A DNA stretch of 33,090 nucleotides, taken from contig CALRIB010000002.1 of the NCBI GenBank assembly GCA_943359705.1, positions 1-33,090 on the forward strand, written 5' to 3'. Positions 2,753 through 26,200 of the stretch are shown here, in pieces; position 1 is the first letter of the stretch; each line of letters begins with the position of its first letter. Both the position numbers and the translations under genes were made by a program. The notes under the pieces are model-generated. The model ran no database searches. It was not told the DNA's origin and saw only the letters and a list, made by a program, of their open reading frames with translations. The stretch is from Candidatus Nomurabacteria bacterium (lineage in GTDB: Bacteria; Patescibacteriota; Minisyncoccia; Phycocordibacterales; UBA2100).

Positions 2753-2772
2753 TCGCACAAGTATATATCTTC

Positions 2773-2937
2773 TGGGAGAACCGGGAATCGGTCAGGAATA
2801 ATTATTTCGCCGCCGCGAAATAATTTTCACGACCCTGGCTCGGCATTTTTCGTACTCGAAAAATATGCCTGCGCCTTTCGATTCCCTCACCATAGGTGCG
2901 AAGGCACCTATGGTGCGTCCGCCTTCACTTCGTTCAG
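2773..2937 (-). repeat. tRNA-His trailer element, distal unit (unit 1)
   Basis: Colinear with unit 2. Shares the 86-bp identical block (2869-2954 = 3068-3153), a 26-nt hairpin (2800-2825), the 14-mer ACGACCCTGGCTCG (2829-2842), a second hairpin (2842-2869) and a 12-bp hairpin (2888-2915). Ends CTGACC + degenerate tRNA-His 3' end (2773-2789, 10/17). Confidence 0.7.
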
Positions 2938-3136
2938 GGCGGCCGTCGGGAATCTCCCTCGCCTCTCGGTTCGCCGCCGCGAGGAATCGGTCACAGATAT
3001 CCCATCCGCCGCCGCGGATGGGATTCCGCGACCCCGGCTCGCGGTTTCGGCCGCTGCCGAAACATCGCTGCGCCTTTCGATTCCCTCACCATAGGTGCGA
3101 AGGCACCTATGGTGCGTCCGCCTTCACTTCGTTCAG
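2938..3136 (-). repeat. tRNA-His trailer element, proximal unit (unit 2), ending in a perfect orphan copy of the tRNA-His 3' end
   Basis: Starts right after tRNA-His 3' end (3137). Contains a 12-bp hairpin (3087-3114), hairpin 3044-3063, 14-mer GCGACCCCGGCTCG (3028-3041) and a 26-nt hairpin (2999-3024). Then GTGACC + degenerate tRNA 3' end (2972-2988, 12/17), followed by a perfect 17-nt GATTCCCGACGGCCGCC copy at 2938-2954. Confidence 0.75.
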
Positions 3137-3209
3137 GGCGGCCGTCGGGAATCGAACCCGAATTGAGAGCTCCACAAGCTCCAGTGTGAACCGTTACACC
3201 ACGGTCGCC
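3137..3209 (-). tRNA. tRNA-His (anticodon GUG)
   Basis: Hand-folded cloverleaf on minus strand: G-1 plus GCGACCG acceptor (one A4:C69 mismatch), D arm GTGT/ACAC, anticodon stem GGAGC/GCTCT with loop TTGTGGA, T arm TCGGG-TTCGATT-CCCGA. No encoded CCA. Confidence 0.85.
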
Positions 3210-6011: not shown

Positions 6012-6020
6012 ATTAAAGCC

Positions 6021-7372: not shown

Positions 7373-7506
7373 GGTGCGCGGTGAGGGATTTGGTCACGCG
7401 TCGTTTTCTGTTGAAAACGCGCGCGACCCCGCCTCGGCCCGGCCTCCGGCTTTCAAATCCTGCCCCCAACGCAAAAGCACCCGCGGGGGGTGCTTTGTGC
7501 ATCGGG
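7373..7506 (-). repeat. tRNA-Val trailer element ending in an orphan copy of the tRNA-Val 3' end
   Basis: 20-nt direct repeat GGTGCGCGGTGAGGGATTTG at 7373-7392 and 7505-7524 (the latter is the real tRNA-Val 3' end plus 2 nt). Between them: terminator-like hairpin (7474-7496), 14-mer GCGACCCCGCCTCG (7423-7436), 27-nt hairpin (7397-7423), then GTGACC (7392-7397). Confidence 0.7.
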
Positions 7507-7578
7507 TGCGCGGTGAGGGATTTGAACCCCCGACCCTCCCCGTGTAAAGGGGTTGCTCTACCACTGAGCTAACCGCGC
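7507..7578 (-). tRNA. tRNA-Val (anticodon UAC)
   Basis: Acceptor GCGCGGT/ACCGCGC, D arm GCTC-AGTGGTA-GAGC, anticodon loop TTTACAC, T arm GGGGG-TTCAAAT-CCCTC. Confidence 0.85.
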
Positions 7579-7624
7579 ATCTATTTACTGCGCTACGTGT
7601 GCGCAACGGCTCTTCCGAGCCGGG

Positions 7625-8001: not shown

Positions 8002-8048
8002 CCCTGGATTATATCACTTCGTTCTAACCCACTTCTAGTCAGGTAAAT

Positions 8049-8923: not shown

Positions 8924-8924
8924 A

Positions 8925-9449: not shown

Positions 9450-9498
9450 GGAACTAGTGCGTAGTGGCTAGTGCGTAGTTGGTAGAAAAATACATAGT

Positions 9499-10620: not shown

Positions 10621-10679
10621 TCAGCAATTATAACCCGCCTACCGGCCGGCAGACCTGCCTGCCGTGAGGTAGGCGCGTT

Positions 10680-11009: not shown

Positions 11010-11012
11010 ACC

Positions 11013-11408
11013 TTAGTCTATCGCGGGCGTGCGCATGTCTAAATAGCGCTGCAGTATGAGCGCCGCAGCGGCAGCGTTGTTGTGCTCGTTGCCTTTCTCG
11101 GCGTACCGCGAGGCCTCGATGGAACTCCCCGCTTCGCGCGCGTATTCACTCTCTATCTGTGTGGCCTTCGCGAGCTCACCGACAAATTTCTCCAGCTCCG
11201 GTGTGACCGTATTTGCGCCGCCCTCCCACGTGCGCGTGTCGCCGATGATTATTTTCTCGACTTTTCCTTCCTCGGCCATCCGCGTAATGAACTTGAAAAG
11301 GTGGTCGTCGTTGGCAATTTCGGCCCGCGGAAACGCAATCTTCCCGTCACTATCAGAAATAGCGAGTCCGACTCGCTTTGCACCATAATCTATGCCCAAA
11401 TATTTCAC
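11013..11408 (-). CDS. ruvX: Putative pre-16S rRNA nuclease / Holliday junction resolvase-like YqgF
   Basis: (V)KYLGIDYGAKRVGLAISDSDGKIAFP... GTG start at 11408 with TATACT (11415-11420) 6 nt upstream. Confidence 0.8.
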   Translation of the reverse strand: MKYLGIDYGAKRVGLAISDSDGKIAFPRAEIANDDHLFKFITRMAEEGKVEKIIIGDTRTWEGGANTVTPELEKFVGELAKATQIESEYAREAGSSIEASRYAEKGNEHNNAAAAALILQRYLDMRTPAID

Positions 11409-11489
11409 GCGTTCAGTATATACGAAGCCGTAGCGGCCTGCCGGTAGGCAGGCCTGCGCTCCGGTAGGCAGGCATCCGAAAGCGGGAAC

Positions 11490-11924
11490 CTATATACCGA
11501 ACCCGAATCCTCCGTGGCCGCGCCCCATCCCTTTACCCTTTGCCGGCTTCGCTGCAAGAGCCGCGAGCCGTGCATCCATCTGTGCCTGCGTGATGACGCC
11601 TTGGTCAACAAGCGCCTGGAGTTGCGCCTTGACCTGTGTCTGCCTGGCTGCGCCCAGCTTCACTTTGAGCTGGTCGGCGGAAATGCCGTTATCAGCGGCT
11701 ATCTGCGGAAGCGTCTTGCCTTCCGACCAGCCGGTCTTCAGAGCATCGACGGAAATTCCGAGCGTACTCGCCTCCTTCTGCAACATCGTCGTAAAACGCG
11801 ATGCAAGATCCGTAGGCGAGAGCGTGCCGAAGGCTCCGAGTGAGAGCGCTGAGGCGGTGCTTGCCGTGACGAAGAGAAGTCCGAGCGCCGGGAAGAGGCT
11901 ATAGAGCAATACTTTTCCTTTCAT
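11490..11924 (-). CDS. Secreted protein with signal peptide, Gly-rich C-terminus (hypothetical)
   Basis: MKGKVLLYSLFPALGLLFVTASTASA signal-like N-terminus, helical repeats, C-terminal GKGMGRGHGGFGFGI. Confidence 0.5.
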   Translation of the reverse strand: MKGKVLLYSLFPALGLLFVTASTASALSLGAFGTLSPTDLASRFTTMLQKEASTLGISVDALKTGWSEGKTLPQIAADNGISADQLKVKLGAARQTQVKAQLQALVDQGVITQAQMDARLAALAAKPAKGKGMGRGHGGFGFGI

Positions 11925-12011
11925 GAACTTTCTTTACCAATGCTAGTAATATCTTCGCCGTCCACCTCTAGAGAGTGTTCGGCTGCAGATAGTACACAAG
12001 CATCCGTCTTC

Positions 12012-12728
12012 TTATTTCATTCGCATTTCGTCTTCCAACATGCGTACGCCAAACGCCTGCACCGTATCCGTCGCTACTCTGTCTCCAAGGATGACGACGA
12101 AATCCCCTTCAGAAAAATCCGCGCCGTACGGAAGCCGCGTACGCGGGGAGACGCGTATCGTTGATGTCCCGTCTTCCTGGTCGACAATAATGAAGCCGCC
12201 GGGAATGAACCGCAGGATAGTACCGCGATAGAGGTCGGGATGTGCGGGATGGAAGACGCGATAGAGAGCACCGAGGGGTGCGGGAGCGTCACCTTGTCGT
12301 GCGTGCCGGTACATTTCGCGATGGAACGGCGTTTTCGCGATGAAAAATCCCCCGGCGGCGGCAAGAACCGCGAGCGCGAGAAGCGAAGTGACGAGCGAGC
12401 GGCGGTATACGAACGCATACCGACGCGCGAGTATTTCAAGCAACACGATAAACACGAAGACAAGCAGTATCAAAAGCCACGGGAGCGAGTGCAGGAGCGC
12501 GAGCCAGCCGCGCGAGCCGAAGGCGGGCTGGAACCACGCGCCGCTCTGGCGCAGGAAGAAGACCGCCAGGCTCGTGATGTACAAAAGTCCGGCAAATACT
12601 AGCGCTATGCCGGTAAACGCAAAGGCCGAAAAGAGGACGAAGTGCCAACGCGGTTTCATCTTCACGCTTCCCGCGCGAATTGCCGCTTCTACGCGCTCAC
12701 GCACTGTGTGTTCAGAATGTTCACTCAT
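12012..12728 (-). CDS. Polytopic membrane protein coupled to the ECF sigma factor (anti-sigma position)
   Basis: Start set at ATG 12728 ([13 protein letters not shown]...), overlapping the sigma gene stop by 8 nt. 4 TM, then a small beta-rich C-terminal domain. Confidence 0.55.
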   Translation of the reverse strand: MSEHSEHTVRERVEAAIRAGSVKMKPRWHFVLFSAFAFTGIALVFAGLLYITSLAVFFLRQSGAWFQPAFGSRGWLALLHSLPWLLILLVFVFIVLLEILARRYAFVYRRSLVTSLLALAVLAAAGGFFIAKTPFHREMYRHARQGDAPAPLGALYRVFHPAHPDLYRGTILRFIPGGFIIVDQEDGTSTIRVSPRTRLPYGADFSEGDFVVILGDRVATDTVQAFGVRMLEDEMRMK

Positions 12729-13281
12729 AGATGTCTTGGGGTTTGGCCATTTTTTGCAAGAGCGCTTTGCCGCGTGCGATGCGCACGCCGACTGTTGAGA
12801 CAGGGATGTGAAGCACTTCGGCGATTGTTTTGTAATCCATGTCCTCAAAATAGTACAGCACGAGCGGCTCGCGATATTTCACATCGAGCGCACTTAGATA
12901 CTTTTCGAGTGTCTCCCGGAGGCTCCGGTCGAGCGCGCGGTCATCGGCGCTCTCAGCAGCCGTGAGATGCGGAAAGATGGTGTCCATATCAAACTGAAAG
13001 AGAGGCGCACGCGAGCGCTTCGAGAGCGCGTTTACAAATTCGTTGTGCGCGATTCGGTAAATCCACGGCGAAAATCGGCGCGATGCATCGAAGCTCTGAA
13101 TGTTCTTGTACGTTTTTATAAAAATGTCTTGCACGATATCTTTCGCGTCGTCCGTGTCGCTCAGAAATTTCCGCGCATAGCGCGAAAGCTTGTCCTGGTA
13201 GCGCTCCACCAATTCACCAAAAGCCTCCGTATCCCCTTTTTGTACGCGCAGCGCGACTTCTTCATCGGTCTCTTTTTTCAT
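12721..13281 (-). CDS. RNA polymerase sigma factor, ECF (sigma-70 group 4) family
   Basis: Region 2 (...[20 protein letters not shown]...[13 protein letters not shown]) and region 4 HTH (...[27 protein letters not shown]). Confidence 0.85.
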
Positions 13282-13685
13282 GCCAACTTCGACGTTTTGT
13301 ATATCTCCGGCTTGTACGCCGAGAGCCGCACGATGTCCACTGTAATACCGGCGGCAGCGAGCTTTTCTTTCAAATCCAGTACGTACTCGCCTTCTTGGTC
13401 ATAGCCAAGCGCAATGATGCTCGGCTTCGCTGCGATGATGTGGGGTATGTGGTCTCCCTCGTCGCCGAGCATCACCTCATCGACGAGCGGATTTTTTCGA
13501 ACATTCGCCAAGCGCGCTTTTTCCGAGTTGCGCGGCCGCGCACTCTTGATGCGCTCAACAATGTTGTCGCGCGCCACGGAAACGATGAGAAACGGTTCCG
13601 TCGCAAGAGCGCGGGCTTGCCGAAACATATCCTCGTGCCCGGCATGCACAATGTCGAACGTCCCGAAAACCATGATGCGCGTCAT
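13278..13685 (-). CDS. Cytidylyltransferase-fold nucleotidyltransferase, RibL-like (candidate FMN adenylyltransferase)
   Basis: [17 protein letters not shown] (GxFDxxHxGH) nucleotidyltransferase motif. 135 aa, same size class as archaeal RibL. ATGA overlaps at both ends (13278-13281, 13682-13685). Confidence 0.6.
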
Positions 13686-14029
13686 ATCTTTTCTCCCTCG
13701 AAATACTTGCGGACAAAATACACGTCGCTCGCAATCGCCGTGTGGAGTGCCGTGTCTGTGTCAAAGACTTGGCTCTCGCGGATTTTCTTTTCGAGTTTGA
13801 TGGTCACTTCTTTTCCGTACAGGTCATCAGCAAAATCCAGCAAGTGCGCCTCCAGTACTTTTCGTTTCTGGTCGGCAAAAGCGGCAGCAATAAAATTCTG
13901 CTTCCCCACCATGACCCGCGCCGCATAGATCCCATCATCGCTTCCCGTAAGCGGAATATTCACCGTCGGAAATCCGAGCCCGGCCGCCCGTTTGGTACCC
14001 TTTTCGACTACTCCTTTATACGTATTCAT
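13682..14029 (-). CDS. Riboflavin kinase (stand-alone RibF C-terminal domain)
   Basis: Start set at ATG 14029 ([27 protein letters not shown]...GIYAARV...[30 protein letters not shown]). The track N-terminus runs through tRNA-Ser. ATG is 5 nt after the tRNA-Ser 3' end. Confidence 0.75.
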
Positions 14030-14034
14030 ACCGG

Positions 14035-14119
14035 CGGAGGGGGTGGGATTCGAACCCACGATGCCTTTCGACATGGCAGTTTTCAAGACTGCTCGTTTGA
14101 ACCGCTCACGCACCCCTCC
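14035..14119 (-). tRNA. tRNA-Ser (anticodon UGA)
   Basis: Acceptor GGAGGGG/CCCCTCC, anticodon stem GCAGT/ACTGC with loop CTTGAAA, long variable arm CATGTCGAAAGGCATCG, T arm GTGGG-TTCGAAT-CCCAC. Confidence 0.85.
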
Positions 14120-14123
14120 GTGT

Positions 14124-14603
14124 TCAATCATTACCTTTCAACCAACTCTTTTCAAGGTGGTGCTCTTCGTAATGACAATTCGGGCAAACGAGCTCGAGAT
14201 TACTTGAATCGTTGTTCTTCCGGTTTCTATCTTTGTGATGCACATGCAATATTTCTTTCTTGTTGTAGCCGCATCGCTCGCAAGAGCCTCCCCGCTCCTC
14301 CAGAAGCCTGATTTTCATCGCCCGCTCGGCGACAACCTTATCACGCGGCCGACCGATCTTGTAGTGAATTCCTGTGCGATATTTATTCGAGCACGCACGG
14401 CTACAAGTTATTCTGTGCAAACTTGCGAGAATCGGCTTCGCACAAACGACACACGGTGACTCGTTCCGACTTGAGATACCGTAACATGCCTGGCCACAAT
14501 AGGCTCTGCCACTAGTAGCAGCGAGCTGAACAGGTCGACGATAAATTTGCTTACCGCAAATCGTGCACTTTGTATTTGGATTTCTTTTATACCGCTCCGC
14601 CAT
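14124..14603 (-). CDS. HNH endonuclease with N-terminal Cys-rich (zinc-finger-like) region
   Basis: Start set at ATG 14603 (MAERYKRNPNTKCTICGK...). ...CERCGYNKKEILHVHHKDRNRKNNDSSNLELVCPNCHYEEH is the HNH core. Low GC. TGgTATACT (14610-14618) 6 nt upstream. Stop 4 nt before the tRNA-Ser 5' end. The track extension to 14924 overlaps the HD gene. Confidence 0.8.
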   Translation of the reverse strand: MAERYKRNPNTKCTICGKQIYRRPVQLAATSGRAYCGQACYGISSRNESPCVVCAKPILASLHRITCSRACSNKYRTGIHYKIGRPRDKVVAERAMKIRLLEERGGSCERCGYNKKEILHVHHKDRNRKNNDSSNLELVCPNCHYEEHHLEKSWLKGND

Positions 14604-14641
14604 TCGGCCAGTATACCAGTTTTCCTTTACTCCAAGCGGGG

Positions 14642-15283
14642 CTATTCGCTCTCGCTGCCCGCAGCATCTATCCACTCGACTCCGGCTTTCTCGAACTGCG
14701 TCTTTAAATCTTTCTTTACTGCATCGAGCAGGTCCTTGAGCTCCGGAAAAGGTCGCGTTGCTTCGTCGAATGCGGCGACGGCGGCATCGGCGTACGACGC
14801 GTGGAATTCTTTGGGTATGTACATCTCCACGCCGCCTTCGGCGATATGCAGAAATCCCTCGATCTTGTCGAGCGCACGCACGAACCGCGCTTCTACCGTC
14901 CGCTGGTCGGTGTATTCGCGCCACAAATCGTAGACGGATTTTCCAAATGCTATGTCCCCCGTCATCTCACGCATCGCCTCGTCTTCTTTGGCCGTTTTGC
15001 GGACGGTCATTTTTTTCCCGGCGAGCATTTGCTCGTATGCGTCGATATCCCCGGTCTTCGCCTCCCCGAGGTCATGGACGAGGGCGAGCGAAAGCGTGCG
15101 ACCCATGTTGAGGCGCACCCTACACTCCGGGCCAATGATGAGCGCCATAAGCGCCAGGCGCCACGAATGCGCGGCGACCGTGTTTTGCTTGCCCCGTAGC
15201 GACGCGCCGTAGCGCTCGATGCTCTCGAGCTCCTTCGTGCGTCGCAGAAATATGAGGATATCTTCCATTTCCCGTCGTTTCAT
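14642..15283 (-). CDS. HD-domain phosphohydrolase, YfbR-like 5'-deoxynucleotidase
   Basis: ...NTVAAHSWRLALMALII...LALVHDLGEAKTGDI... (H...HD...D metal ligands in YfbR-like spacing). Confidence 0.7.
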   Translation of the reverse strand: MKRREMEDILIFLRRTKELESIERYGASLRGKQNTVAAHSWRLALMALIIGPECRVRLNMGRTLSLALVHDLGEAKTGDIDAYEQMLAGKKMTVRKTAKEDEAMREMTGDIAFGKSVYDLWREYTDQRTVEARFVRALDKIEGFLHIAEGGVEMYIPKEFHASYADAAVAAFDEATRPFPELKDLLDAVKKDLKTQFEKAGVEWIDAAGSESE

Positions 15284-15320
15284 TTGTTGTCAAAAGCACC
15301 AAGACACTGGCTGCCTAGGC

Positions 15321-15350
15321 TTGACTCGGGTATCATCCTTCACTTATAGT
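15321..15350 (+). promoter_or_regulatory. Candidate sigma-70 promoter for the TrmB-like/DNPH1-like operon
   Basis: TTGACT (15321-15326), 18-nt spacer, TATAGT (15345-15350), about 50 nt upstream of ATG 15401. Confidence 0.4.
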
Positions 15351-15400
15351 ACGGGCTCAAATGAGAGAGGCTTGTTTGTAAAAATACACTTTACAACTCT

Positions 15401-16213
15401 ATGGCCAAGCAGATACAAAAACAGGACAGCGTGACGCGAACGCTCGCCGTACTCGACCTCAATGAGAATGAGGCAGTGCTCTACGGCCAGATGCTGAGTC
15501 ACCCCCAGAGCACGGTGCAGGAGCTTGGCACGCGCGCCCCCTTCCCTCGCACGATGCTGTACTACGTGCTGAAACAACTCATGCAGCGCGGACTGGTGTC
15601 GGCAAGGAAGGAAGGCTGGCGCACCGTGTATGTGGCCGAAAATCCCGAGCGACTCTACGATCTGCTCTCGCGCAAAGAGAAGGAGTTTGAGCGCGAGACT
15701 GCAGCAATTCGCGAGCTTGTTCCCCATCTCAAGCAACGCTACCGTTTTGCAGGAAAGCGGCCGACGGTACGGACGTTCGAAGGACTGGAGGAATACCAGA
15801 AAGCGCTTGAGGACAGCATCGTGTCGAAGCCGAAAGAAATCCTTGCTTACGAGATGCTCGGCGCGAAGAAGCCCGCCATTCAAATGCGCGATGCACACGA
15901 GCGGCGGCGCGTTACGCGGAAAATACTGAAGAAGGTGCTGTTCTTCGAGAGTAGAGATGCGATGCGAGCCCTCGAGAGCCGTCGCTACGACGACTTCACG
16001 CAATTCCGTAGTATCAAAGACGGACCCGCGCCCTTCGGCGCCGACGTGACGCTCTACGACGGCAAGCTTCTCTATACGAGTTACTACGCCGGGCACGAAC
16101 CGACTGCCGTGCTCATCGAAGACGAGGCACTCTACATGATGCAGAAGAGCCTCTTCGACGCCTTGTGGAAACAAGGAAAAGACCGCACACTCTCGTTCAA
16201 CAAGAACCTATGA
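15401..16213 (+). CDS. TrmB-family transcriptional regulator
   Basis: N-terminal winged HTH (...LNENEAVLYGQMLSHPQSTVQELGTRAPFPRTMLYYVLKQLMQRGLVSARKEGWRTVYVAENPERLYDLL) plus coiled segment and C-terminal domain typical of TrmB proteins. Confidence 0.7.
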   Translation: MAKQIQKQDSVTRTLAVLDLNENEAVLYGQMLSHPQSTVQELGTRAPFPRTMLYYVLKQLMQRGLVSARKEGWRTVYVAENPERLYDLLSRKEKEFERETAAIRELVPHLKQRYRFAGKRPTVRTFEGLEEYQKALEDSIVSKPKEILAYEMLGAKKPAIQMRDAHERRRVTRKILKKVLFFESRDAMRALESRRYDDFTQFRSIKDGPAPFGADVTLYDGKLLYTSYYAGHEPTAVLIEDEALYMMQKSLFDALWKQGKDRTLSFNKNL

Positions 16214-16623
16214 ACATTTTCTTTACCGGCTCCATACGCGGAGGGCGCGAGAACCAGCCGCAATACGCCCGTATCGTCAAAATGCTCGAGAAACACGGTA
16301 CGGTCTTTTCCAAACACGTGGCGGACGAGACGCTCTCACAATATGGTGAGACGAACCTTACGAACGCAGAGATCCTCGCACGCGAGCTGGATGCCCTCAG
16401 TACATCGGACGTAGTCGTGGCAGAAGTCACTACGCCGAGCCACGGTGTCGGGTACTTTATCGCACGCGCCACTCTGCAGGGGAAAAAAGTAGTCGCTCTT
16501 CACTGTGGAGAGTACGAACTCAAACTCTCGGGCATCATCCAGGGCGACCCCGGGGTGGAATTGCATATTTACAAGACCGATGAAGACATCGAGCGCATAC
16601 TCCAAACGGCGTTTCGAACATAA
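16210..16623 (+). CDS. 2'-deoxynucleoside 5'-phosphate N-hydrolase (DNPH1/Rcl-like, nucleoside 2-deoxyribosyltransferase fold)
   Basis: [15 protein letters not shown]... and ...[20 protein letters not shown]... match the DNPH1 signature (GSIRGGRE; catalytic Glu in AEVT). ATG 16210 overlaps the TrmB stop as ATGA. Confidence 0.8.
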
Positions 16624-16700
16624 AAAGCGATATTTCCGGGTTTTTGGGCTATTCACACCTGGCCTTGGCGGGGATGGCGCGCAAGGTACAATTGCTCCAT

Positions 16701-17120
16701 ATGAATACCCGCGAAACCCGAGGTTTTACCCTCATTGAATTACTCGTCGTCATAGCAATTATCGGCCTTCTCGCCTCAATCGTCATCGCCTCGCTCTCTA
16801 CGGTGCAGGCCAAAGCACGTGACGCCAGGCGTATGGAAGACGTCAACTCGCTTCAGAAGGCGCTCACTATCTACGTCTCCAATCACGGCACCTATCCTAT
16901 CTATACGGCGACAACGACCGTCACCGCCACGACGACCGTGGGCGCCGACCTCATCGCAGACCAGGCTATCCCGACGTCACCGAAAGACCCGACCGACCCG
17001 GTGCGCGTGTACAGTTACCACTCGAACTCCGACGGTTCAAGCTATACGCTCAACTTCTGCCTGGAGACTGACAGCATCCGGAGCTACGCGGCGGGCTGCA
17101 ACAACAACATCACTCCGTAA
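16701..17120 (+). CDS. Type IV pilin / prepilin with N-terminal methylation motif
   Basis: MNTRETRG|[24 protein letters not shown] class III signal. TTGGCG-16-TACAAT (TACAAT 16687-16692) 8 nt upstream of ATG 16701. Alternative starts at 16674 and 16644. Confidence 0.85.
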
Positions 17121-17145
17121 GTTCGTATATCGGGAGGTCTCCAAA

Positions 17146-17176
17146 GGCCGCCGCGCAGAAGCGCGGCGGCCTTTTT
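17146..17176 (+). terminator. Rho-independent terminator after the pilin gene
   Basis: GGCCGCCGCGC-agaa-GCGCGGCGGCC followed by TTTTT. Confidence 0.8.
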
Positions 17177-17214
17177 CGCGAGCTGCGCGTAAATGCGTAG
17201 TACAATATATTTTC

Positions 17215-17685
17215 ATGCCTTCCTCCTCAAACGGAATACGCTGGACGGCGCACGAACACGAACACATCGAGCGCGGGAGCGACTGGTTTTGGGCACTCGG
17301 TATCGCGGCCGCCGCGCTTGCCGCCATCAGTTTCCTTTTCGGCAACGCGCTTTTCGGCGTGCTCATCATCGTCGCTGCCGTAACGCTCGGCATCTTCGCC
17401 AAAAAACCGCCTCCGCTTATGGAATTCGAGATCTCCGACCGCGGCATCCGCACGGGCGAGGTAATGCATCGCTACGAGGAAATCATTTCCTTTTGGGTAG
17501 AGGAGCACGATGCAAATCCCCCCATTCTTCTTATCGACACCACAAAATGGCTCTCACCCAATCTCATTATCGAGCTCGAACACGTCGACGCGAAAGAGGT
17601 GCGCGCATTTCTGGCCGAGCGAGTAGAAGAAGTGCCGATGAAAGAACCGGTCGCGCACAAAATTCTCGAATTCTTCGGACTCTGA
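17215..17685 (+). CDS. Membrane protein with two TM helices and a bacterial PH-like C-terminal domain (hypothetical)
   Basis: Start set at ATG 17215 (MPSSSNGIRWTAHEHEHIERGSDWFWALGIAAAALAAISFLF...) with TACAAT (17201-17206) 8 nt upstream. The track N-terminal extension (from 16819) is an R/P/T-rich read-through overlapping the pilin gene. Confidence 0.55.
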   Translation: MPSSSNGIRWTAHEHEHIERGSDWFWALGIAAAALAAISFLFGNALFGVLIIVAAVTLGIFAKKPPPLMEFEISDRGIRTGEVMHRYEEIISFWVEEHDANPPILLIDTTKWLSPNLIIELEHVDAKEVRAFLAERVEEVPMKEPVAHKILEFFGL

Positions 17686-17688
17686 AAC

Positions 17689-18087
17689 AGCCACTAGCCA
17701 CTAGTTCTTAGCCACTAGCGAGCCGATGAGTTTATTTAACATACGCATGACCTCATCTATGAGCGTTTTCGCTCTTTTCAACTGATGCGGGTCGGCAAAT
17801 TTTAGGTTTTCAGCGATTTCAAAATGTGTCTCTAACTCCGCCCCCGAACCGAACGCAATCCTCAAGAATTGAATATTTTCCTGCCGATGCTTGCGCGCGA
17901 ATCCTTCCGCAATATTCGCGGGAATTGACACCGCAGCCCTCCGTGTTTGGCTTGTCAGACCAAACATTTCTGAGCGTGGGTATCGTTCTGTGAGTTTATA
18001 AACTTCGCTGACTAATTCGATGCCGCGTTGCCAAACAACAAGTTCTCGGTACGACTGCATTTTTCTAGTCGCTAGTGGCTAGTGGCT
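17689..18087. mobile_element. Cassette: four-helix-bundle gene bracketed by perfect 16-bp inverted repeats
   Basis: AGCCACTAGCCACTAG at 17689-17704 and its exact reverse complement CTAGTGGCTAGTGGCT at 18072-18087. Extra partial copies at 17710-17723 and 18065-18075. Interior is lower in GC than the flanks. Confidence 0.45.
17701..18060 (-). CDS. Four-helix-bundle protein (23S rRNA intervening-sequence protein family)
   Basis: MQSYRELVVWQRGIELVSEVYKLTERYPRSEMFGLTSQTRRAAVSIPANIAEGFARKHRQENIQFLRIAFGSGAELETH... is the family signature. Confidence 0.85.
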   Translation of the reverse strand: MQSYRELVVWQRGIELVSEVYKLTERYPRSEMFGLTSQTRRAAVSIPANIAEGFARKHRQENIQFLRIAFGSGAELETHFEIAENLKFADPHQLKRAKTLIDEVMRMLNKLIGSLVAKN

Positions 18088-20152
18088 AAATCACTGTAAC
18101 CGTGGTGCTTGCGTCGCGGGTACCTCCGCCGACTGTGACACAGTGGAGCACGAACGCATACGAGGTGGTTGCCGTTTTCGTCAGAGGCGGCGTGGTCGCA
18201 GTGCCGTTGACGTTGGTGTTGCCCGCATTTTGCGTGGTGAACGCCGGAATGTCCGGGCTCGAAATCACGCACGATTGCATGCCGGAGGTAATCCAGCCGA
18301 GCGCCGATTGGCCGCCCGATGCGACATCCTTCGGATTCGCGATGAGGACGATGGAGGGCTTGCCGACCTGGACCGAACACTGCGCAGTGGCCACTGTGCC
18401 CGCACTGTTACAGGTGAGGCCGTATGAAGCGCTGTTGCTGCCTGCGGCGGGATTGGTCGTAGTTGCGAGCGCCGAACCGCTTTGCGCGCCGTTCGTTTGA
18501 AAGCCCGTGCCCGTGCTGGTGCCTGCAGAGCACGAGTACGCGATCGCGATAGACATGCCGACGTCGGCCACTTGCGGATTGCATGATATTTGCGCGGTGA
18601 GAGAGCCGTTGGTGCCGGTACCCGTGCCGCTCGGCACGCACTGCCAGCTCCCCACGCACGCGCCGTTGTACGTGGGCTTCCATGTACCGTTGGCACATCC
18701 GGCCGGGTCAGGTTGTGCGGGTGCCGTCGGGCACTGCTGCGCGGTCGCACATGCGTTGCCCGCAGGCGCGCAGCCGGTGGGGCACGTCTGCATCGGCGTA
18801 TCCACGCACTGATTGTTGCGCGAGTAGAGCGTGTTGTTGGAACAGAGGAGCTGTCCACCCGGGCATGTGCCCGGCGCTTGCGGCGTCTGATTCCCCGCCG
18901 CCGGTGAAGCAGACCCTCCTGGCGAGCCACCCATCAGACCCTTCAACATCGATGCGATGTCCGGCATTCCACTCTTGTTCTGATTATTATTGTTGTTATT
19001 GTCCTGCGGATCCTGCTGGAACGTAGTCTGCTGCCGCTTTGTCGGATCCGGCTGCGCAGTGGTCGTCGTTTTGGTCGGATCCGGCTTGGGAGTGGTCGTC
19101 GTTTTGGTTGGATCAGGAGCCGGAGCTTTGGCGGGAGGTGTACATACCTGATTGGGGTCGCCGGCGGATGCGGTGCACGTAAACCCTTTTGCAGTCAGTT
19201 CATCTACGTTCGCGTCCCTGGCCGGATAACATCCAGTTTTGTCACAATTATATTTTGCCGCATCGACGCCTGCCATCGGATTCGCATTCGGCCCGGATTG
19301 TGCCGCTGCCAAAGCGTCATACCTATCTTGCGCCTCTTTTGCAGCGGCCTGCGCCTTTGCGGCGTCGGCCTGAGCTTGTGCTGCATTCGCGGCTGCGTTC
19401 GCACATCCCGGGCTCGATGTGTCGCCACCGAATGCACAGCTCGAAGCAATGTCGTCTAGCTTAGCGGCCGTTGATTGGGCAGTTGCGGCGGCCGTGGCAG
19501 CGTCAACAAGATTCTTTTTTGCTTCGGCCGTCAGCGCGTCATTAAGAACGCTACGCTCTGTCTCACCGAGTGAGCTCATGAGAGACTGTTGCTGATCCGA
19601 GGGTAGGGTTTTAAATACATCAGGGTTCGCCGCGGCGCTTTTTATACCGGCGATACCAGATACCGCGCCCGTGTCGAGGCATTTCTTATCATCGGGGGTG
19701 CAGTACTGTGTTTTGCACGTGCCTGCCGGGACATCGGCGCTAAGCTTCGAAACAACTTTTCCCGTACCGTCTTTTTGTATGTAAATTTTTGACGTCAACC
19801 CCACGCATATCGCGTCTTGCTCTCCGGTATAGAGAGCTGCGGTGCAGTTATCTTTCTGGACCGTATCTTGCCCTTTTGGCAGACCTGTTTCTTGCGGTGT
19901 GGTGCTTTTCTTTTGCGCTAGAGCCTGTTGCTTCAACGCAGTACATTTCTCTGCCATCTCTTTTTTTCGCGGATCCGCAGGGGGAACAGGGATCGTGTAT
20001 GTCGCCTCGTTGTATCTCGGAGCATCTGCAAGCTGCGATGCTGGTTGAACATTAAGGAATTCTGCAGCACCCGCAGCGCCGAGCATTGCCATTAGGACGA
20101 GGCTGGCAAGTATAGATGCGCCACGTTGACCCCGGTCGGCGGGTAAAGACAT
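18086..20152 (-). CDS. Large secreted/anchored Cys-rich protein with low-complexity linker and two C-terminal Ig-like repeats
   Basis: 688 aa. N-terminal hydrophobic anchor (ASILASLVLMAMLGAAGAA), many Cys, PDPTKTTTT repeats, N6 tract, Met/Lys motif MPDIASMLKGLMGG. C-terminal repeats with W-x-[ST]-x-G-x-x-SC pattern. TATCAT (20159-20164) 6 nt upstream of the ATG. Confidence 0.7.
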   Translation of the reverse strand: MSLPADRGQRGASILASLVLMAMLGAAGAAEFLNVQPASQLADAPRYNEATYTIPVPPADPRKKEMAEKCTALKQQALAQKKSTTPQETGLPKGQDTVQKDNCTAALYTGEQDAICVGLTSKIYIQKDGTGKVVSKLSADVPAGTCKTQYCTPDDKKCLDTGAVSGIAGIKSAAANPDVFKTLPSDQQQSLMSSLGETERSVLNDALTAEAKKNLVDAATAAATAQSTAAKLDDIASSCAFGGDTSSPGCANAAANAAQAQADAAKAQAAAKEAQDRYDALAAAQSGPNANPMAGVDAAKYNCDKTGCYPARDANVDELTAKGFTCTASAGDPNQVCTPPAKAPAPDPTKTTTTPKPDPTKTTTTAQPDPTKRQQTTFQQDPQDNNNNNNQNKSGMPDIASMLKGLMGGSPGGSASPAAGNQTPQAPGTCPGGQLLCSNNTLYSRNNQCVDTPMQTCPTGCAPAGNACATAQQCPTAPAQPDPAGCANGTWKPTYNGACVGSWQCVPSGTGTGTNGSLTAQISCNPQVADVGMSIAIAYSCSAGTSTGTGFQTNGAQSGSALATTTNPAAGSNSASYGLTCNSAGTVATAQCSVQVGKPSIVLIANPKDVASGGQSALGWITSGMQSCVISSPDIPAFTTQNAGNTNVNGTATTPPLTKTATTSYAFVLHCVTVGGGTRDASTTVTVI

Positions 20153-20352
20153 CGCTCAATGATACTCCCTTTATTGCGCTGAACGTCGGCTAAATGTGGA
20201 AAAAGCTGGCGAAACGAACGATGCGCTGCATTTGTCTGTGCCCTTCGCCAACTGGGAAACCCACGGTTTTCCCAATCCTTCCTCCACGGGAAACCGGCAG
20301 GTTTCCCGACCCCTTCCTCCGGCGAGGTCATCTCGCTCACTTCGTTCGCTTG

Positions 20353-20424
20353 TGCCCTCGCCGGGAATCGAACCCAGATTACAAGCTCCGCAAGCTTGCG
20401 TTCTATCCGTTGAACTACGAGAGC
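20353..20424 (-). tRNA. tRNA-Arg (anticodon GCG)
   Basis: Acceptor GCTCTCG/CGAGGGC (one G:U), D arm GTTC-AACGGATA-GAAC, anticodon stem CAAGC/GCTTG with loop TTGCGGA, T arm CTGGG-TTCGATT-CCCGG. Confidence 0.8.
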
Positions 20425-20471
20425 GTCTGAGGAACAAACAGAGAATACAACGTATTCCCGTTTTTTACGAA

Positions 20472-24571: not shown

Positions 24572-24623
24572 GCACCGTTCGGCTTTGAGGTTTACGCGTT
24601 CAGCGGGTATATTTCCCATACTC

Positions 24624-24696
24624 CCGCCCATAGCTCAGTTGGTAGAGCAGCTCCCTTTTAAGGAGACGGTCGTAGGTTCGATTCCTACTGGGCGGA
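24624..24696 (+). tRNA. tRNA-Lys (anticodon UUU)
   Basis: Acceptor CCGCCCA/TGGGCGG (unusual C1:G72), D arm GCTC-AGTTGGTA-GAGC, anticodon stem GCTCC/GGAGA with loop CTTTTAA, T arm GTAGG-TTCGATT-CCTAC. Confidence 0.8.
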
Positions 24697-24834
24697 CACG
24701 AATGAAAAACAGCACCTGCGTGCTGTTTTTCTTTACGTGTCCGAGCCGGAGCCATGTTTCGTCAGCAGACGAAACGGGCGAGGCAGGGTCGTGGAATTTT
24801 GCGAGCGGCGGCGAGCAAAATATCCCTGACGACC
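24697..24834 (+). repeat. tRNA-Lys trailer element (same family as the His/Val elements)
   Basis: Same order as behind tRNA-His: long hairpin (24705-24730), 8-bp hairpin GTTTCGTC-agca-GACGAAAC (24756-24775), 14-mer CGAGGCAGGGTCGT (24779-24792, the reverse complement of ACGACCCTGCCTCG), 26-nt hairpin with GC-GGCG-GC apex (24796-24821), then CCCTGAC (24824-24830). Confidence 0.6.
24705..24735 (+). terminator. Rho-independent terminator after tRNA-Lys (also first hairpin of the trailer element)
   Basis: AAAAACAGCAC-ctgc-GTGCTGTTTTT followed by CTTT. Confidence 0.7.
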
Positions 24835-24841
24835 AACTAGA

Positions 24842-26200
24842 TTAAATCGTAAGGTCAACCGTCACCGAATCCGTCACATGTCTTCCGTCGGCGGTGAGGC
24901 AGGAGATGCTGAAGACGGTCGAACCGGTGAGCGGCACCGTGGAAGCACCGCCGGAGAGAGAGTTCTCATTGAAGCTTCCGTCAGGCGAAGTCTCTTTGCA
25001 CGAGACCACTCCCTGTGTGTTCCAAAATACCGATGTGCGTGAACCAAGCGGCACCGACGCGGGCACAGCCCAGATGTCGGCCTCCGGCTCAACGGTGGAC
25101 GCGGCGGGCTGTGCGGGAGCCGGCGCGGCTGATGTCGGCGTCTTTTGTTGCACGATAACAGTCTGCGTGACCGGCGCGCTCGGCGGGGCAGGTCTTCCTA
25201 CGTCATACCCGCGCCATGCGCAGAGGCTGTCGAAAAATGCCGGAGGAATGACGAAGGAAACGACCGAGCCCGCCCATGGGCGACCGTGGCAGAGATCAGC
25301 CACGAGACCGGTCGGCTGAGAAGTGCCCATCGTGTCGCCGCCGTAGAAGCCCGCTATTTCAGTATTGCCCGCGGTATCGCGTGCGTTCGCAAGCACTGTT
25401 GCGCCTGAATTGGTCATGACGATGTTGCCTTTCGTTCCCGACTGCATGTCGGTCGCGAGCCCGCCTACATTTTTGAGCGGCAGTGTGGTGACATTCTGAT
25501 TTGTATTGACGGTAGTTGAAGTGTCCCCAGTTCCGCCACTCGTGTCAGTCGTCGTATTGCTGAGTATCTGGTCACTCACATTCGCAGGAGTGCCGCCAAA
25601 CGCATCAGTCAGAGAACTGCCCGCACCGCTGTTGAGCGCATTCAAAAGTGCGTCGCTTGCGGTACTCGTCGGTGCCGTGAGAAGACTGTTGGAAATCGGC
25701 GGCACGTAATAGGCGCACGGGTCGGTAGAAGGCGTCGTGACCTGATAGTACGCTGTGCAGCCGCACTTCCCTGTCGCGTCGGCCACTCCGCCGCTCGGGC
25801 AAGTGCTTCCGGGTGGAGTCGTCGGGGGAGGAGTGGAGGGCGGGCTGTCCTTCGGCTTCAACATATCCATGATGCTTTTCATCATGTCCATGAAACCTTT
25901 CATATCGCCTATTCCGCCTTTTTCGGTTCCGGTTCCCTCGCATTTGTTCGCACTAGCGCAGATGCCGATAACCTTCCCTCCTGGTGGCGTATCGAAGCAA
26001 ACACCAGGCGGACAGTTGGCTGTGTTTTTCCCCCCCGTACAACCACCCTTTCCGTCGGGGATTTGATTGCACATGCACTGCGCAAACCATGGATTGCACA
26101 TAGCGTTGGCTTTCGCGCTCATCGAGGCCTGAGCTGCGAACGGAGCAAGTAGTAGCAGCACGAGAGTAGATGCAAAAGCGAGGCGAGCACGATGCGTCAT
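24842..26200 (-). CDS. Secreted Cys-rich protein, paralogous in architecture to 18086-20152, one C-terminal Ig-like domain
   Basis: Start set at ATG 26200 (MTHRARLAFASTLVLLLLAPFAAQA signal peptide; TAGCAT 7 nt upstream). Track start 26248 is GTG. Cys-rich N-domain, Met/Lys motif MKGFMDMMKSIMDMLKPK, Pro/Thr linker. C-terminal ...SVFWNTQGVVSCKETSPDG...STVFSISCLTADGRHVTDSVTVDLTI. Confidence 0.65.
   Translation of the reverse strand: MTHRARLAFASTLVLLLLAPFAAQASMSAKANAMCNPWFAQCMCNQIPDGKGGCTGGKNTANCPPGVCFDTPPGGKVIGICASANKCEGTGTEKGGIGDMKGFMDMMKSIMDMLKPKDSPPSTPPPTTPPGSTCPSGGVADATGKCGCTAYYQVTTPSTDPCAYYVPPISNSLLTAPTSTASDALLNALNSGAGSSLTDAFGGTPANVSDQILSNTTTDTSGGTGDTSTTVNTNQNVTTLPLKNVGGLATDMQSGTKGNIVMTNSGATVLANARDTAGNTEIAGFYGGDTMGTSQPTGLVADLCHGRPWAGSVVSFVIPPAFFDSLCAWRGYDVGRPAPPSAPVTQTVIVQQKTPTSAAPAPAQPAASTVEPEADIWAVPASVPLGSRTSVFWNTQGVVSCKETSPDGSFNENSLSGGASTVPLTGSTVFSISCLTADGRHVTDSVTVDLTI

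Follow-up and report, generated by a model that had tools for sequence, protein, structure and literature searches.

An ORF-less insertion element family of Patescibacteria, found behind tRNA and other genes and carrying an internal complement of its insertion site

The tRNA-Lys unit and the other copies in the window

The window (the whole stretch of 33,090 nucleotides from a Candidatus Nomurabacteria bacterium that was analysed here) contains, immediately behind a tRNA-Lys(UUU) gene, a series of hairpins which is one copy of a previously undescribed ORF-less family of insertion elements of Patescibacteria. In this family the core measures ~105-115 nt and whole units ~110-200 nt. Read in the sense of the target gene, a unit is composed of X1 (the element-borne target copy) plus a replacement gene end, a hairpin that is often terminator-like, a guide, a two-arm core and an invariant TGAC, and the displaced original gene end (X2...) follows the TGAC as an orphan. 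The Lys locus is organized as follows.

24585-24613: promoter-like site
24624..24697, + strand: tRNA-Lys(UUU), the target gene (ARAGORN; Rfam tRNA, 70.6 bits)
24695..24830, + strand: whole Lys unit, 136 nt, from X1 to the invariant 3' end TGAC
24695..24700, + strand: X1, left target copy, GACACG, the reverse complement of the guide
24705..24730, + strand: hairpin 3, terminator-like, AAAAACAGCAC-ctgc-GTGCTGTTTTT (MFE structures)
24736..24743, + strand: internal guide, CGTGTC complementary to X and the next CG to -2/-1 (C70, G71)
24745..24784, + strand: hp2 arm, with double-sided changes at all hp2 pairs
24756-24775, + strand: 8-bp hairpin GTTTCGTC-agca-GACGAAAC within the hp2 arm
24779..24792, + strand: 14-mer CGAGGCAGGGTCGT
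24788..24830, + strand: P1, the long hairpin, with its closing TGAC at 24827-24830
24796-24821, + strand: 26-nt hairpin inside P1, with tandem G.A (CGAG/CGAG) and a GGCG loop; CCCTGAC follows, ending at 24830
24831..24833, + strand: X2 remnant, right target copy, GAC, decayed after 3 nt
24842-24844: stop of the convergent CDS

From the guide complementarity, the insertion point is placed between G71 (24694) and G72 (24695) of tRNA-Lys. X1 is made of the tRNA nucleotides G72 and A73 and the first trailer bases, and it is preceded by CTACTGGGCG|, with a G at -3 that is faced by A24744, the base after the guide. According to MFE structures, the pairing between X1 and the guide lengthens the stem of hairpin 3 to 24693-24743, and a strict terminator scan did not call this hairpin because its T-run sits inside the stem. 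The hp2 arm is closed by a GCC/GGC helix, in which S/S' covary, and an internal loop rich in GA (GGAG / CGA) lies between this helix and the 8-bp hairpin. The 14-mer runs from the 3' strand of this arm through A-G-G at the junction into the 5' strand of the P1 base. P1 starts at its base with GUCG/UGAC, where one G.U is invariant; G-R-A/U-Y-C and a 1x2 internal loop come next, and the 26-nt hairpin is at the top. The whole unit adopts a three-arm fold with z = -9.4 as RNA and -9.6 as DNA, and its P0 helix (guide/X2) keeps 3/6 pairs in the covariance-model alignment.

All the Lys features listed in the earlier note on this DNA (24705-24730, 24756-24775, 24779-24792, 24796-24821 and CCCTGAC) are found where it had placed them, although some of them have to be read differently. 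The 14-mer, described there as a conserved single-stranded block, is mostly base-paired in the family consensus, its 5' half (CGAG-GSC) closing the hp2 arm and its 3' half (GGGUCG) being the 5' strand of the long-hairpin base. Similarly, the '3-nt gap' behind it is not a spacer, as GRA pairs with UYC beyond the 26-nt hairpin. Nor is there support for the suggestion that the convergent CDS may have overwritten a tRNA-Lys orphan: the Lys copy represents a second insertion class, with the G71/G72 junction, and because it belongs to this "tRNA 3'-end" class no T-loop orphan is expected. The repeated target X at Lys is GACACG only (24695-24700), and its second copy persists as GAC at 24831-24833.

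We searched the window, with filters off, using R1, a covariance model built from 106 copies of other genomes, and it revealed exactly four element copies, two at tRNA-His, one at tRNA-Val and one at tRNA-Lys. The Lys site is the third locus of one family with the same order of parts, as the earlier note had proposed from four units. The core matches and the parts of the other units are these.

2779-2889, - strand: His unit 1 core, R1 match, 109 bits
2978-3088, - strand: His unit 2 core, R1 match, 106 bits
24731-24842, + strand: Lys core, R1 match, 106 bits
7381-7464, - strand: Val core, R1 match of the short 'Val type', 57 bits, E = 3.6e-14
2990..3154, - strand: His unit 2, T-loop class, proximal
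2956..2989, - strand: degenerate tRNA-His 3'-end-like segment between the His units (CGATTCCTCGCGGCGGCG...), by sequence reading
2791..2955, - strand: His unit 1, T-loop class, distal
2770..2790, - strand: decayed orphan, the original tRNA-His 3' end (CGATTCCCGGTTCTCCCAG...), X2 of His unit 1
7393..7524, - strand: Val unit, short subtype, T-loop class, 132 nt; the orthologous site in locus L249 lacks the unit
7373..7392, - strand: orphan, the original tRNA-Val 3' end, 20/20 identical to 7505-7524

In the rest of the window R1 scores never exceeded 15 bits. The degenerate 14-mer RCGACCCYGSCTCG occurs at exactly four window sites (2829, 3028 and 7423 on the + strand and 24779 on the - strand), with a chance expectation of 0.21 sites, and four were reached in 0/100 shuffles. 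In His unit 2 a new tRNA-His 3' end, starting at C56, is followed by a hairpin, then by the guide (GGGAATCG+AA) and lastly by the core with its TGAC; the X2 of this unit is formed by the first 7 nt of the 2956..2989 segment. The first 94 nt of the two His units are 97% identical, and their core stems differ through compensatory changes. The Val orphan ends in CCA, since an A follows in the sense direction. Core identity among the window copies is ~73-80%, and near-identical copies at different targets were not seen within one genome.

Strand-specific fold and internal guide

The core of the sense strand is a three-way junction of 36 pairs in which 93.3% of the cells are paired, against 71.6% in shuffles and 35-45% in slid controls. 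The covarying stems that had been noticed among the window copies are kept in the 106-copy alignment, with 856 double-sided changes versus 276±18 in shuffles, a value reached by 0/500 of them. The P1 base pairs 63-66/106-109 are invariant, including a G.U in 106/106 copies; pair 68-104 is GC in 64 and GU in 41, and pair 16-58 is GC in 53 and CG in 52. The P0 helix shows covariation at 6/6 positions, and the first 4-6 nt of X2 remain complementary to the guide even where the remaining orphan has decayed. The fold is strand-asymmetric, as indicated by the invariant G.U, the G-C/G.U pair at 64/41, the tandem G.A pairs and the greater stability of hp1 on the sense strand, seen in 103/105 copies. 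An RNA from the antisense strand, which at the Lys locus would be a 3' UTR of the convergent CDS, was rejected on this ground: there, C.A / C.T mismatches would take the place of the tandem G.A, the 41 G.U and the invariant G.U pair.

The insertion sites follow the rule 5'-G-N-N|X, where -3 is a G in 61/62 copies and the same G is present in the element's own end, TGAC. The guide, of 10-12 nt, is complementary to NN+X, that is, to target positions -2 to about +10. Beyond X', the two next bases are Watson-Crick complementary to target -1 and -2 in 59/61 and 58/61 copies respectively (0/2000 shuffles), and the third is complementary in 0/61. A single nucleotide lies between the guide and the GSC helix that follows it, guide pairing spans the junction, and the 3' end TGAC| falls exactly where the constant helix P1 abuts the guide-target helix P0. 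In part, the G at -3 and the complementarity to -1/-2 could be due to selection for a stable hairpin beside the tRNA, and not to target recognition.

Distribution, targets and empty sites

A scan of public genomes, with one genome per species, found at least 119 loci, and 117 real copies among the matches listed, all of the latter in MAGs labelled as candidate-phyla-radiation (Patescibacteria). A co-oriented tRNA lies directly upstream of 71/122 motif matches in the listed loci and, when the window copies are added, of 72/102 copies having enough upstream sequence. The tRNA targets belong to at least 18 amino-acid families among the listed loci, and the non-tRNA targets include tmRNA genes, topA, rplL and other protein genes. 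The junction geometry is the same in all the structural subfamilies, of which at least three exist. About 45% of the tRNAs in hit loci bear the element, and few bystander tRNAs do. The tRNA-Lys(UUU) copy recurs in PolA-linked synteny in lineages whose PolA is only ~50% identical, which could be due to long vertical retention under host-level selection instead of repeated insertion.

The Rfam comparison that the earlier note had suggested gave no known family: Rfam 15, with its hammerhead, HDV-like, twister, pistol, hatchet and hairpin ribozymes, HEARO/omega RNAs and group I/II introns, holds none for the element, only tRNAs reached the gathering score in the window, and at E<=10 on 24600-24900 and 2700-3220 the core was overlapped only by noise of 10-17 bits. 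The specific element pattern had no match in viral contigs, and a broad DNA pattern (GTCA-N20-45-13-mer) gave there, among the matches listed, chance hits only. Another pattern, anchored on GCCGCCGC, was also discarded, its six matches being all due to chance and without hairpins. We found no account of such an element in the literature. The internal guide to the insertion site, the strand asymmetry and the non-tRNA targets were absent from the earlier note.

The element is an insertion, and its mobility is demonstrated by empty sites. Synteny between L249 and the window extends over >10 kb, and six tRNAs are shared, the tRNA-Val being 100% identical; in L249 all six are without element, and R1 had zero matches there with filters off. 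The L249 tRNA-Val continues straight into the window's orphan-type end and then into the downstream flank (the empty allele reads ...CCCTCACCGCGCACCAAGG), and its tRNA-His lacks both His units, the orphan at 2770..2790 aligning with the empty-site trailer. In the case of topA, L128 and L161 carry a replacement C-terminus together with the old one as an in-frame orphan, and no element is present in the relatives L246 and L247, where topA and relA stand in the same synteny. Moreover, a tRNA-Glu of L217 that already bore a 3'-end unit has received a T-loop unit as well, with an exact 20-nt repeat. The earlier note had offered a functional RNA or a protein-recognised mobile DNA module; these options bracket the evidence.

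The replaced part ranges from 2 nt of a tRNA, through the final 18-24 nt of a tRNA or tmRNA gene, to ~70 nt of coding sequence plus the stop codon. Exact direct repeats of 18-24 nt, corresponding to the gene 3' part, flank the units in L132, L142, L148, L191, L231 and the window Val copy, and also in tmRNA cases. The length of the flanking repeats varies from 3 to 37+ nt, and the repeat runs on into homologous, diverged gene sequence. A target-site duplication model was rejected on L128 and L161, because the element-borne gene end is homologous to the orphan and diverged past the first 33 nt (in L128 the first 33 nt are identical and the remainder diverged). For the Lys copy no empty allele was found, the nearest homologues of the neighbouring 468-aa protein being <=61% identical; two other contigs with an identical 468-aa protein stop 38 nt past its stop, within the element. 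Under insertion, the empty-site joint at tRNA-Lys is predicted to read ...GGGCG|GACCAACTAG and, under excision, the circle junction of the Lys unit ...CCCTGAC|GACACGAATG.

No ORF lies inside the 110-200-nt units, and no autonomous ORF-bearing copy was seen in about 0.9 Mb of loci. When the ORFs of >=100 aa from the 117 listed loci (~8 kb each) were clustered, no protein family was common to more than 12/117 of them and those that recurred were housekeeping; the largest clusters (RuvA, IF-2, FtsH, HolA, SmpB, PolA, Mur ligase and RbfA) contain no recombinases and are explained by synteny around tRNAs. Tyrosine or serine recombinases were not found in or adjoining the units of the 117 listed loci, no transposase was present among the scanned window ORFs, and neither TnpA nor TnpB appeared in either set.

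Mode of movement and relation to known systems

We infer a single-stranded intermediate, a guide-directed choice of target and an enzyme acting in trans, and we assign a probability of roughly 0.6 to the family being non-autonomous, site-specific, ORF-less insertion elements that move as a folded single strand with the target set by the guide. DNA would be favoured over RNA as this strand. One guide would pair in turn with two copies of X, the donor joint within the element and the target in the chromosome, and a putative structure-specific enzyme would recognise the constant arms and exchange strands at G-N-N|X in both partners. The target gene would remain functional after insertion because the element brings a new 3' end and a hairpin. 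More tentatively, and with doubt prevailing, the element may be a recombination module free of protein genes and programmable, in which a ~110-nt folded strand with a 10-12-nt guide would pick any 5'-G-N-N|X site. The exchange, at the junction of the constant helix and the guide-target helix, would then be made by a conserved host enzyme or by the element's own catalysis, and a new guide with a matching X copy would lead to retargeting. Such a module would explain the presence of one core at T-loops, tRNA 3' ends, tmRNA and coding sequences.

It seems improbable that the element is instead, in the first place, a structured non-coding RNA serving the cell, processed for example from tRNA or mRNA 3' trailers, with the three-way junction as an RNA fold closed by the guide/X2 stem and the insertion-like features reflecting how the RNA gene spreads or was acquired. 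The strong covariation and the RNA-typical G.U and tandem G.A on the strand co-transcribed with the upstream gene would fit it, as would the lack of a terminator between tRNA and core in the His units, the core kept at tRNA-Lys(UUU) across lineages with such distant PolA, and the X2 start that stays guide-complementary despite orphan decay. However, many units have a strong hairpin and a T-run between the upstream gene and the core, so that co-transcription would often be poor, and an own promoter is not evident. Furthermore, an Rfam family is absent, the element sits on ~45% of hit-locus tRNAs and few bystanders, a close syntenic relative lacks it at all six tRNAs, and the guide complementarity to -1/-2, which is unable to pair in the X2-closed fold, would be left unexplained.

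Less probable again is a mini satellite of tRNA-targeting integrative elements (an attP-only remnant, or CIME-like), whose duplex DNA would be moved by a tyrosine integrase encoded elsewhere, the core being the binding sites of integrase or accessory proteins. The 18-24-nt repeats of tRNA/tmRNA 3' ends from the T-loop, the gene-end replacement and the tandem arrays are indeed a classic integrase signature, and the element sites match the T-loop and the 3' end, both of which are reportedly known integrase crossover sublocations. Nevertheless, one core is found at sites as unlike as T-loops and tRNA 3' ends, codons of topA and rplL, among others, with the G at -3 as sole common base, which a protein-read core site would not allow, and G.U/G.A on one strand mean C.A/C.T on the other, unexpected for duplex protein-binding sites. 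All these diverse targets and the strand-asymmetric structure argue against duplex att cores read by a protein. In addition, a duplex circle of 110-200 bp is a poor integrase substrate, an integrase is not linked in the 117 listed loci, and a classical attP has no use for an internal sequence complementary to its crossover site.

Finally, it is very improbable that no dedicated machinery exists and that a hairpin/terminator module, arisen a few times by replication slippage or illegitimate recombination, has spread solely by homologous recombination after DNA uptake, with gene body and orphan as homology arms: Patescibacteria are thought to depend on DNA uptake, homology does flank the unit (the gene 5' part; the orphan and downstream flank) and the L128 repeat looks like a crossover with foreign DNA, but this leaves unexplained the spread of a single core to tmRNA, to several protein genes and to tRNAs of at least 18 families, the strict adherence of the sites to G-N-N|X, the guide overhang of exactly 2 nt, the conserved non-Watson-Crick motifs and the shared junction geometry of at least three subfamilies.

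Among the nearest known systems are IS200/IS605 elements with their ORF-less PATEs, which are moved as single-stranded DNA by the Y1 HUH transposase TnpA. Both have strand-specific imperfect hairpins near both ends, no terminal inverted repeats and ORF-less derivatives, as well as a guide that adjoins the foot of a conserved hairpin on its 5' side and pairs with the cleavage or target site, the target being encoded in the element DNA; the IS200/IS605 guide-site contacts include non-canonical pairs. However, the guide is here of 10-12 nt instead of 4-5, and it pairs mainly 3' of the junction, unlike in IS608, where the recognised tetranucleotide is 5' of the cut. Moreover, IS200/IS605 use a fixed tetra- or pentanucleotide and have no flanking repeats, whereas here the targets vary and direct repeats flank the units, because the element bears a target copy and a replacement gene end.

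IS110/IS1111 (bridge RNA / seekRNA) also rely on base-pairing between element guide and target, have no inverted repeats or classical duplication and prefer structured or repeated sites. Nevertheless, their products are a DEDD recombinase and an RNA of ~150-180 nt in which target and donor have loops of their own, and their shared core is of 2 nt, whereas here there is no ORF, a single guide would serve both partners and the target repeat is longer (5-37+ nt); neither Rfam nor sequence comparison revealed similarity. The islands and prophages that tyrosine integrases insert in tRNA or tmRNA genes share the T-loop or 3'-end insertion, the gene restored by an element-borne end, the orphan 3' end and the tandem arrays. 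They differ from these 110-200-nt units, which lack an integrase, also target protein genes, have a strand-asymmetric fold and carry an internal complement of the crossover site.

In the integron attC and the CTX-phage attP(+) hairpin, intrastrand pairing likewise makes a duplex recombination site that is recognised through its structure (bulges and extrahelical bases). These are read by IntI or XerCD at fixed cores (GTTRRRY, dif), whereas here the paired site is variable and is the target, and the conserved part lies outside it; GTTRRRY/RYYYAAC boxes were not found, and the units are at gene 3' ends and not in cassette arrays. Mobile group II (class C) and group I introns are similar in that an internal guide pairs with the target, IIC introns insert beside hairpins or terminators and a G.U wobble adjoins the reactive junction, but the element has no intron-like catalytic core, RT, maturase or Rfam match, and instead of being spliced out it replaces the gene 3' end.

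Other identities were discarded. A MITE is not consistent with the lack of an inverted repeat between the X1... and ...TGAC ends or with a repeat length that is not fixed. In the case of TnpB/IscB guide RNAs (omega/reRNA) a tnpB/iscB ORF does not adjoin the units and Rfam gives no omega-RNA match; only the layout recalls them, with scaffold-TGAC|flank and a motif containing G on the 5' side. Ribozymes (hammerhead with CUGANGA/GAAA/NUH, HDV-like with P1/P2 nesting, or hairpin with N|GUC and AGAA), group II domain V and K-turn/box C/D motifs did not fit the conserved positions when compared by eye on either strand; for instance, CUGA is present in only half of the copies, the S of 'GAGSC' varies and the end is GAC| and not GUC|.

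If the guide does set the target, the family would represent a new mode of DNA movement in which the address is a short complementary sequence, carried by an element far smaller than any known site-specific mobile element and one that also repairs the gene it interrupts. It would then be the third natural case of recombination programmed by nucleic acid, after the IS200/IS605 guides and the IS110 bridge RNAs, and would point to an enzyme or a ribozyme/DNAzyme activity in Patescibacteria that is perhaps reprogrammable. Whatever the mechanism, the covariance model can be used for annotation, and the family accounts for orphan tRNA ends, tandem repeats and assembly breaks that adjoin tRNA genes in genomes of the candidate phyla radiation. 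Rfam, IS finders and integrase-based island finders, the standard tools, all overlook this mobile element, which is abundant in such reduced genomes.

The Lys unit and its family

The earlier note had described an ordered set of hairpins and conserved blocks behind tRNA-Lys (24697-24834), and on inspection of the sequence we found all of them in place, so that the observation itself is real. What stands behind tRNA-Lys is one member of a large, hitherto undescribed family of miniature insertion elements that bear a guide.

Features of the Lys region (unit 24695-24830, + strand)
24705-24730, long hairpin
24756-24775, 8-bp hairpin GTTTCGTC-agca-GACGAAAC
24779-24792, 14-mer CGAGGCAGGGTCGT
24796-24821, 26-nt hairpin
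ending at 24830, CCCTGAC

The four related 14-mers that had been listed were also recovered: the degenerate form occurs four times in the window (tRNA-His twice, tRNA-Val and tRNA-Lys) against 0.21 expected, and no shuffle gets to four. The Lys region (153 nt) forms three hairpin arms with z = -9.4 as RNA and -9.6 as DNA, and the covariance model of the family, R1, matched exactly four units in the window, the short Val type among them. The suggested Rfam check returned, at gathering score, only seven tRNAs in the window, and a permissive Rfam search of the His and Lys regions gave nothing relevant.

A survey with the pattern GTCA-N28-36-TTYCRCGACCCYGSCTCG in one genome per species gave at least 119 loci. 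Patescibacteria MAGs account for 117 of the loci listed, under the labels Paceibacteria/Parcubacteria, Kaiser-, Nomura-, Adler-, Taylor- or Zambryskibacteria, or plain "bacterium", some of them carrying the third-party annotation labels "Saccharibacteria" or "Bdellovibrionales". The matches in L134 (Minwuia) and L203 (a Thermoplasmata archaeon) were rejected as chance matches, the structure being absent. Also among the matches listed, a tRNA lies directly upstream in the geometry of the window, with stereotyped spacing, in 71 of 122 motif matches, and within 420 nt upstream in 72 of the 102 copies, those of the window included, whose upstream sequence is 450 nt or longer; the targets cover at least 18 amino-acid families, most commonly Lys, Arg, His and Asp. 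The motif is found on only ∼45% of the tRNAs in the listed loci and on few bystander tRNAs, which indicates that the element is optional and not a general tRNA trailer.

In the fetched loci R1 gave 153 matches; tandem arrays were among them, and so were two or more additional structural subtypes. A third structural subtype (L143 1373-1490, L199 765-901, L226 303-428) keeps the GAG-S-C-GGGGTCG junction and the GTGAC end with a much longer P1 arm (...GCACTTAG...CTTAGTGACTTGTGAC); its R1 scores reach only 40-55 bits, and it frequently stands in tandem with the main type.

A strand-specific fold and an internal guide

The covariation of the stems, claimed from the window copies, was borne out by an alignment of 106 distinct copies (A2, the source of R1), all taken on the strand co-oriented with the tRNA. 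RNAalifold gave two arms with compensatory changes in 20 of 30 pairs. When the closing helix P0 was added, 93.3% of the positions in 36 pairs were paired (71.6% when shuffled), with 856 double-sided changes against 276±18 in shuffled alignments (0/500), while slid controls reached 35-45% pairing. The consensus fold is a three-way junction.

Arms of the consensus fold
P0, internal guide paired with the flank after the element
hp2 arm, 3-bp G-S-C helix, GA-rich internal loop and 8-bp hairpin with AGCA loop
P1, base GUCG/UGAC, G-R-A/U-Y-C, 1x2 internal loop and upper stem

The G-S-C helix shows perfect G/C-C/G covariation (53/52), and the upper stem of P1 frequently contains tandem G.A pairs (CGAG/CGAG) and a GNCG loop. 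One pair is G.U in 106/106 copies and another is G-C in 64 and G.U in 41. Furthermore, hp1, in the P1 arm, is more stable on the tRNA-sense strand in 103/105 copies, and on the opposite strand the G.U and G.A positions would turn into C.A and C.T mismatches; it is thus the sense strand of the target gene that folds. Both RNA and single-stranded DNA could accommodate G.U/G.T and sheared G.A pairs. The boundary TGAC|X, where X is the target sequence, falls in the folded unit exactly at the end of P1 and the start of P0, on a continuous strand.

The guide lies directly 5' of the G-S-C helix. Covariation extends to all six scored positions of P0, where pairing is 95% beside the junction and 55-63% at the far end. 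In 61 non-redundant copies with a locatable element-borne target copy (X1), the two bases that come after the guide form Watson-Crick matches to target positions -1 (59/61) and -2 (58/61), which none of 2000 shuffles attained, and the third, A or G opposite G, is complementary in 0/61. Target position -3 is G in 61/62 copies, protein-gene targets included, and so is position -3 of the element 3' end TGAC|, so that both junctions read 5'-G-N-N|X. On the uninterrupted target, guide complementarity extends from -2 to about +10. The bases at -1 and -2 belong to the host gene (e.g. T54, T55) and not to the element, and the likeliest reason for their match to the element is that the intact target, or the left junction, is recognised.

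In about a dozen T-loop copies the T-loop CGAA faces guide UGAG as a tandem G.A pair. The guide reads ...GAUGAG or ...GACGAG, not ...GAUUCG, in L135, L138, L139, L147, L148, L169, L220, L222, L231, L236 and L240, so that T-loop G57-A58 faces guide G-A; this is the same CGAG/CGAG motif as in the P1 upper stem.

Insertion sites, displaced gene ends and empty alleles

The sequence following the invariant end TGAC (X2) duplicates X1. Exact repeats of 18-24 nt, corresponding to the tRNA 3' end from T-loop C56, are found in L132, L142, L148, L191, L231 and the Val unit of the window; in the remaining copies they are shorter or decayed. tRNA insertions fall into two main classes, T-loop (GGGTT|CGAATCC) and 3'-end, the latter 1 or 2 nucleotides before the tRNA end (e.g. 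GGGCG|CACAAG). A hairpin like that of the 3'-end class frequently follows the tRNA end in T-loop-class units (L217, L207, tmRNA cases), which suggests that these derive from 3'-end-class units with an extended left boundary. The tRNA-Glu of L217, which already bore a 3'-end unit, has a nested T-loop unit with an exact 20-nt repeat. Protein-gene targets are topA, rplL and an efp-like gene; for seven copies among the matches listed the target is the T-loop of a tmRNA-like 3' end. The sequences in front of the copies in L143, L156, L199, L221, L222, L241 and L244 resemble tmRNA 3' ends (upstream ends ...GGTTCRAWTCC...TCTCCAC(A)) with the junction in a T-loop-like region; ARAGORN called no tmRNA gene at these loci in the fetched stretches.

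The topA case separates the element from a simple duplication. In L128, topA is interrupted ∼70 nt before its stop by an element from which it gains another C-terminus, in frame (...NKSCANHNPHKREKK*), together with a hairpin, and the displaced original end (...NKTCPNHNPHKKGK*) follows the element; L161 has the same arrangement. The two ends are identical over the first 33 nt and diverged in the remainder. A target-site duplication was rejected, as the copies are homologous yet diverged, and such a pair is the signature of an element carrying its own copy of the target 3' end. L246 and L247, with topA-relA synteny kept and TopA 76-77% identical to that of L128, have an intact TopA C-terminus with a plain hairpin, and R1 found no match in either.

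An empty tRNA-Val allele, predicted from the window before the search (tRNA 5' part plus the displaced original end or orphan, GGTTCAAATCCCTCACCGCGCACCAAGG), was found in two metagenome contigs. Of these, L249 keeps synteny with window 3136-20427 (65-83% nucleotide identity) and shares six tRNAs, tRNA-Val being 76/76 identical. There, tRNA-Val joins the orphan-type end directly, followed by the homologous region upstream of rplS; tRNA-His has a plain trailer at the place of the two units, and R1 with filters off gave no match. Being empty at both tRNAs, L249 shows that the Val and His units of the window are insertions relative to a related genome.

The original tRNA-Val end (7373-7392, versus 7505-7524) precedes an A and so encodes CCA (...GCGCACCAAGG), and the same holds for the empty allele of L249; in the element-borne replacement (...GCGCACCCGATG) CCA is not encoded, so the tRNA would need CCA addition after insertion. 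Between the His units, an extra 34-nt segment (2956-2989) resembles a diverged tRNA-His 3' end (CGATTCCTCGCGGCGGCGAAC...GAGGCGAGGGA) and could be a remnant of a third, mostly deleted unit.

The Lys unit belongs to the 3'-end class (GGGCG|GACACG, between G71 and G72). Only three bases of its X2 remain, so this copy looks old, and no empty allele was found among the contigs examined. Two Logan contigs from independent assemblies that carry the 426-aa protein of the window (L251, L252) both stop 38 nt beyond its stop codon, inside P1 of the Lys unit, which is a typical effect of a multi-copy repeat on short-read assembly. The element recurs behind tRNA-Lys(UUU) in PolA-linked synteny across deep lineages. 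As different insertion classes occur at this tRNA, the recurrence is compatible with a hot spot with repeated turnover; alternatively, it could reflect host-level retention.

Other features of the window were noted. A 266-aa ORF (14124-14924, -) with a C-terminal HNH endonuclease domain (Pfam E = 2e-5) and a 62%-identical homologue in L197 abuts tRNA-Ser (14033-14119), a tRNA gene without an element, and may encode a free-standing homing-type nuclease. Beside tRNA-Leu (5929-6011), a 225-aa ORF (6021-6698, -) gives a LAGLIDADG-like match that is weak (22.7 bits, at the Pfam cut-off); a homologue of 37% identity is present in L186, where the element occurs three times. At three places, intergenic or at gene boundaries (9454-9487, 17695-17718, 18065-18088), there are short CTAGTG-rich repeats (CTAGTGCGTAGTGGCTAGTG, also inverted) that have no relation to the element. 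A 33-nt tandem duplication of 88% identity (19038-19103) lies within a 688-aa ORF (18086-20152) that gave no Pfam match.

Known systems and proposed mechanism

The units, of 110-200 nt, are without an ORF, clustering of all ORFs in 117 listed loci revealed housekeeping synteny only, the viral contigs searched contained no copy, and we found no description of such an element in the literature. The systems closest in logic are IS200/IS605, which is single-stranded and has hairpins, with its guide 5' of the foot of a hairpin; IS110, whose bridge RNA is programmable as a guide; integrase-type islands (insertion in the tRNA/tmRNA T-loop or 3' end with the gene restored); and attC and CTX attP(+) (folded single-stranded sites). 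The element lacks defining features of these families; for integrase-type islands, no recombinase gene was found within or next to the units in the 117 listed loci, and membership there is unlikely.

We propose that the element would act as a single strand, folded and of sense polarity, whose one guide would pair alternately with its own X, in a circular or excised form making the joint TGAC|X, or with the chromosomal X. A structure-specific activity on the constant arms could then swap strands at G-N-N|X in both partners, and the outcome would be gene-5'-part|X1...core...TGAC|X2-orphan. DNA rather than RNA is tentatively favoured as the moving species because in many units a hairpin and a T-run separate the core from the gene upstream, a promoter is not evident, and, in highly expressed genes co-oriented with replication, it is the sense strand that is exposed as single-stranded DNA.
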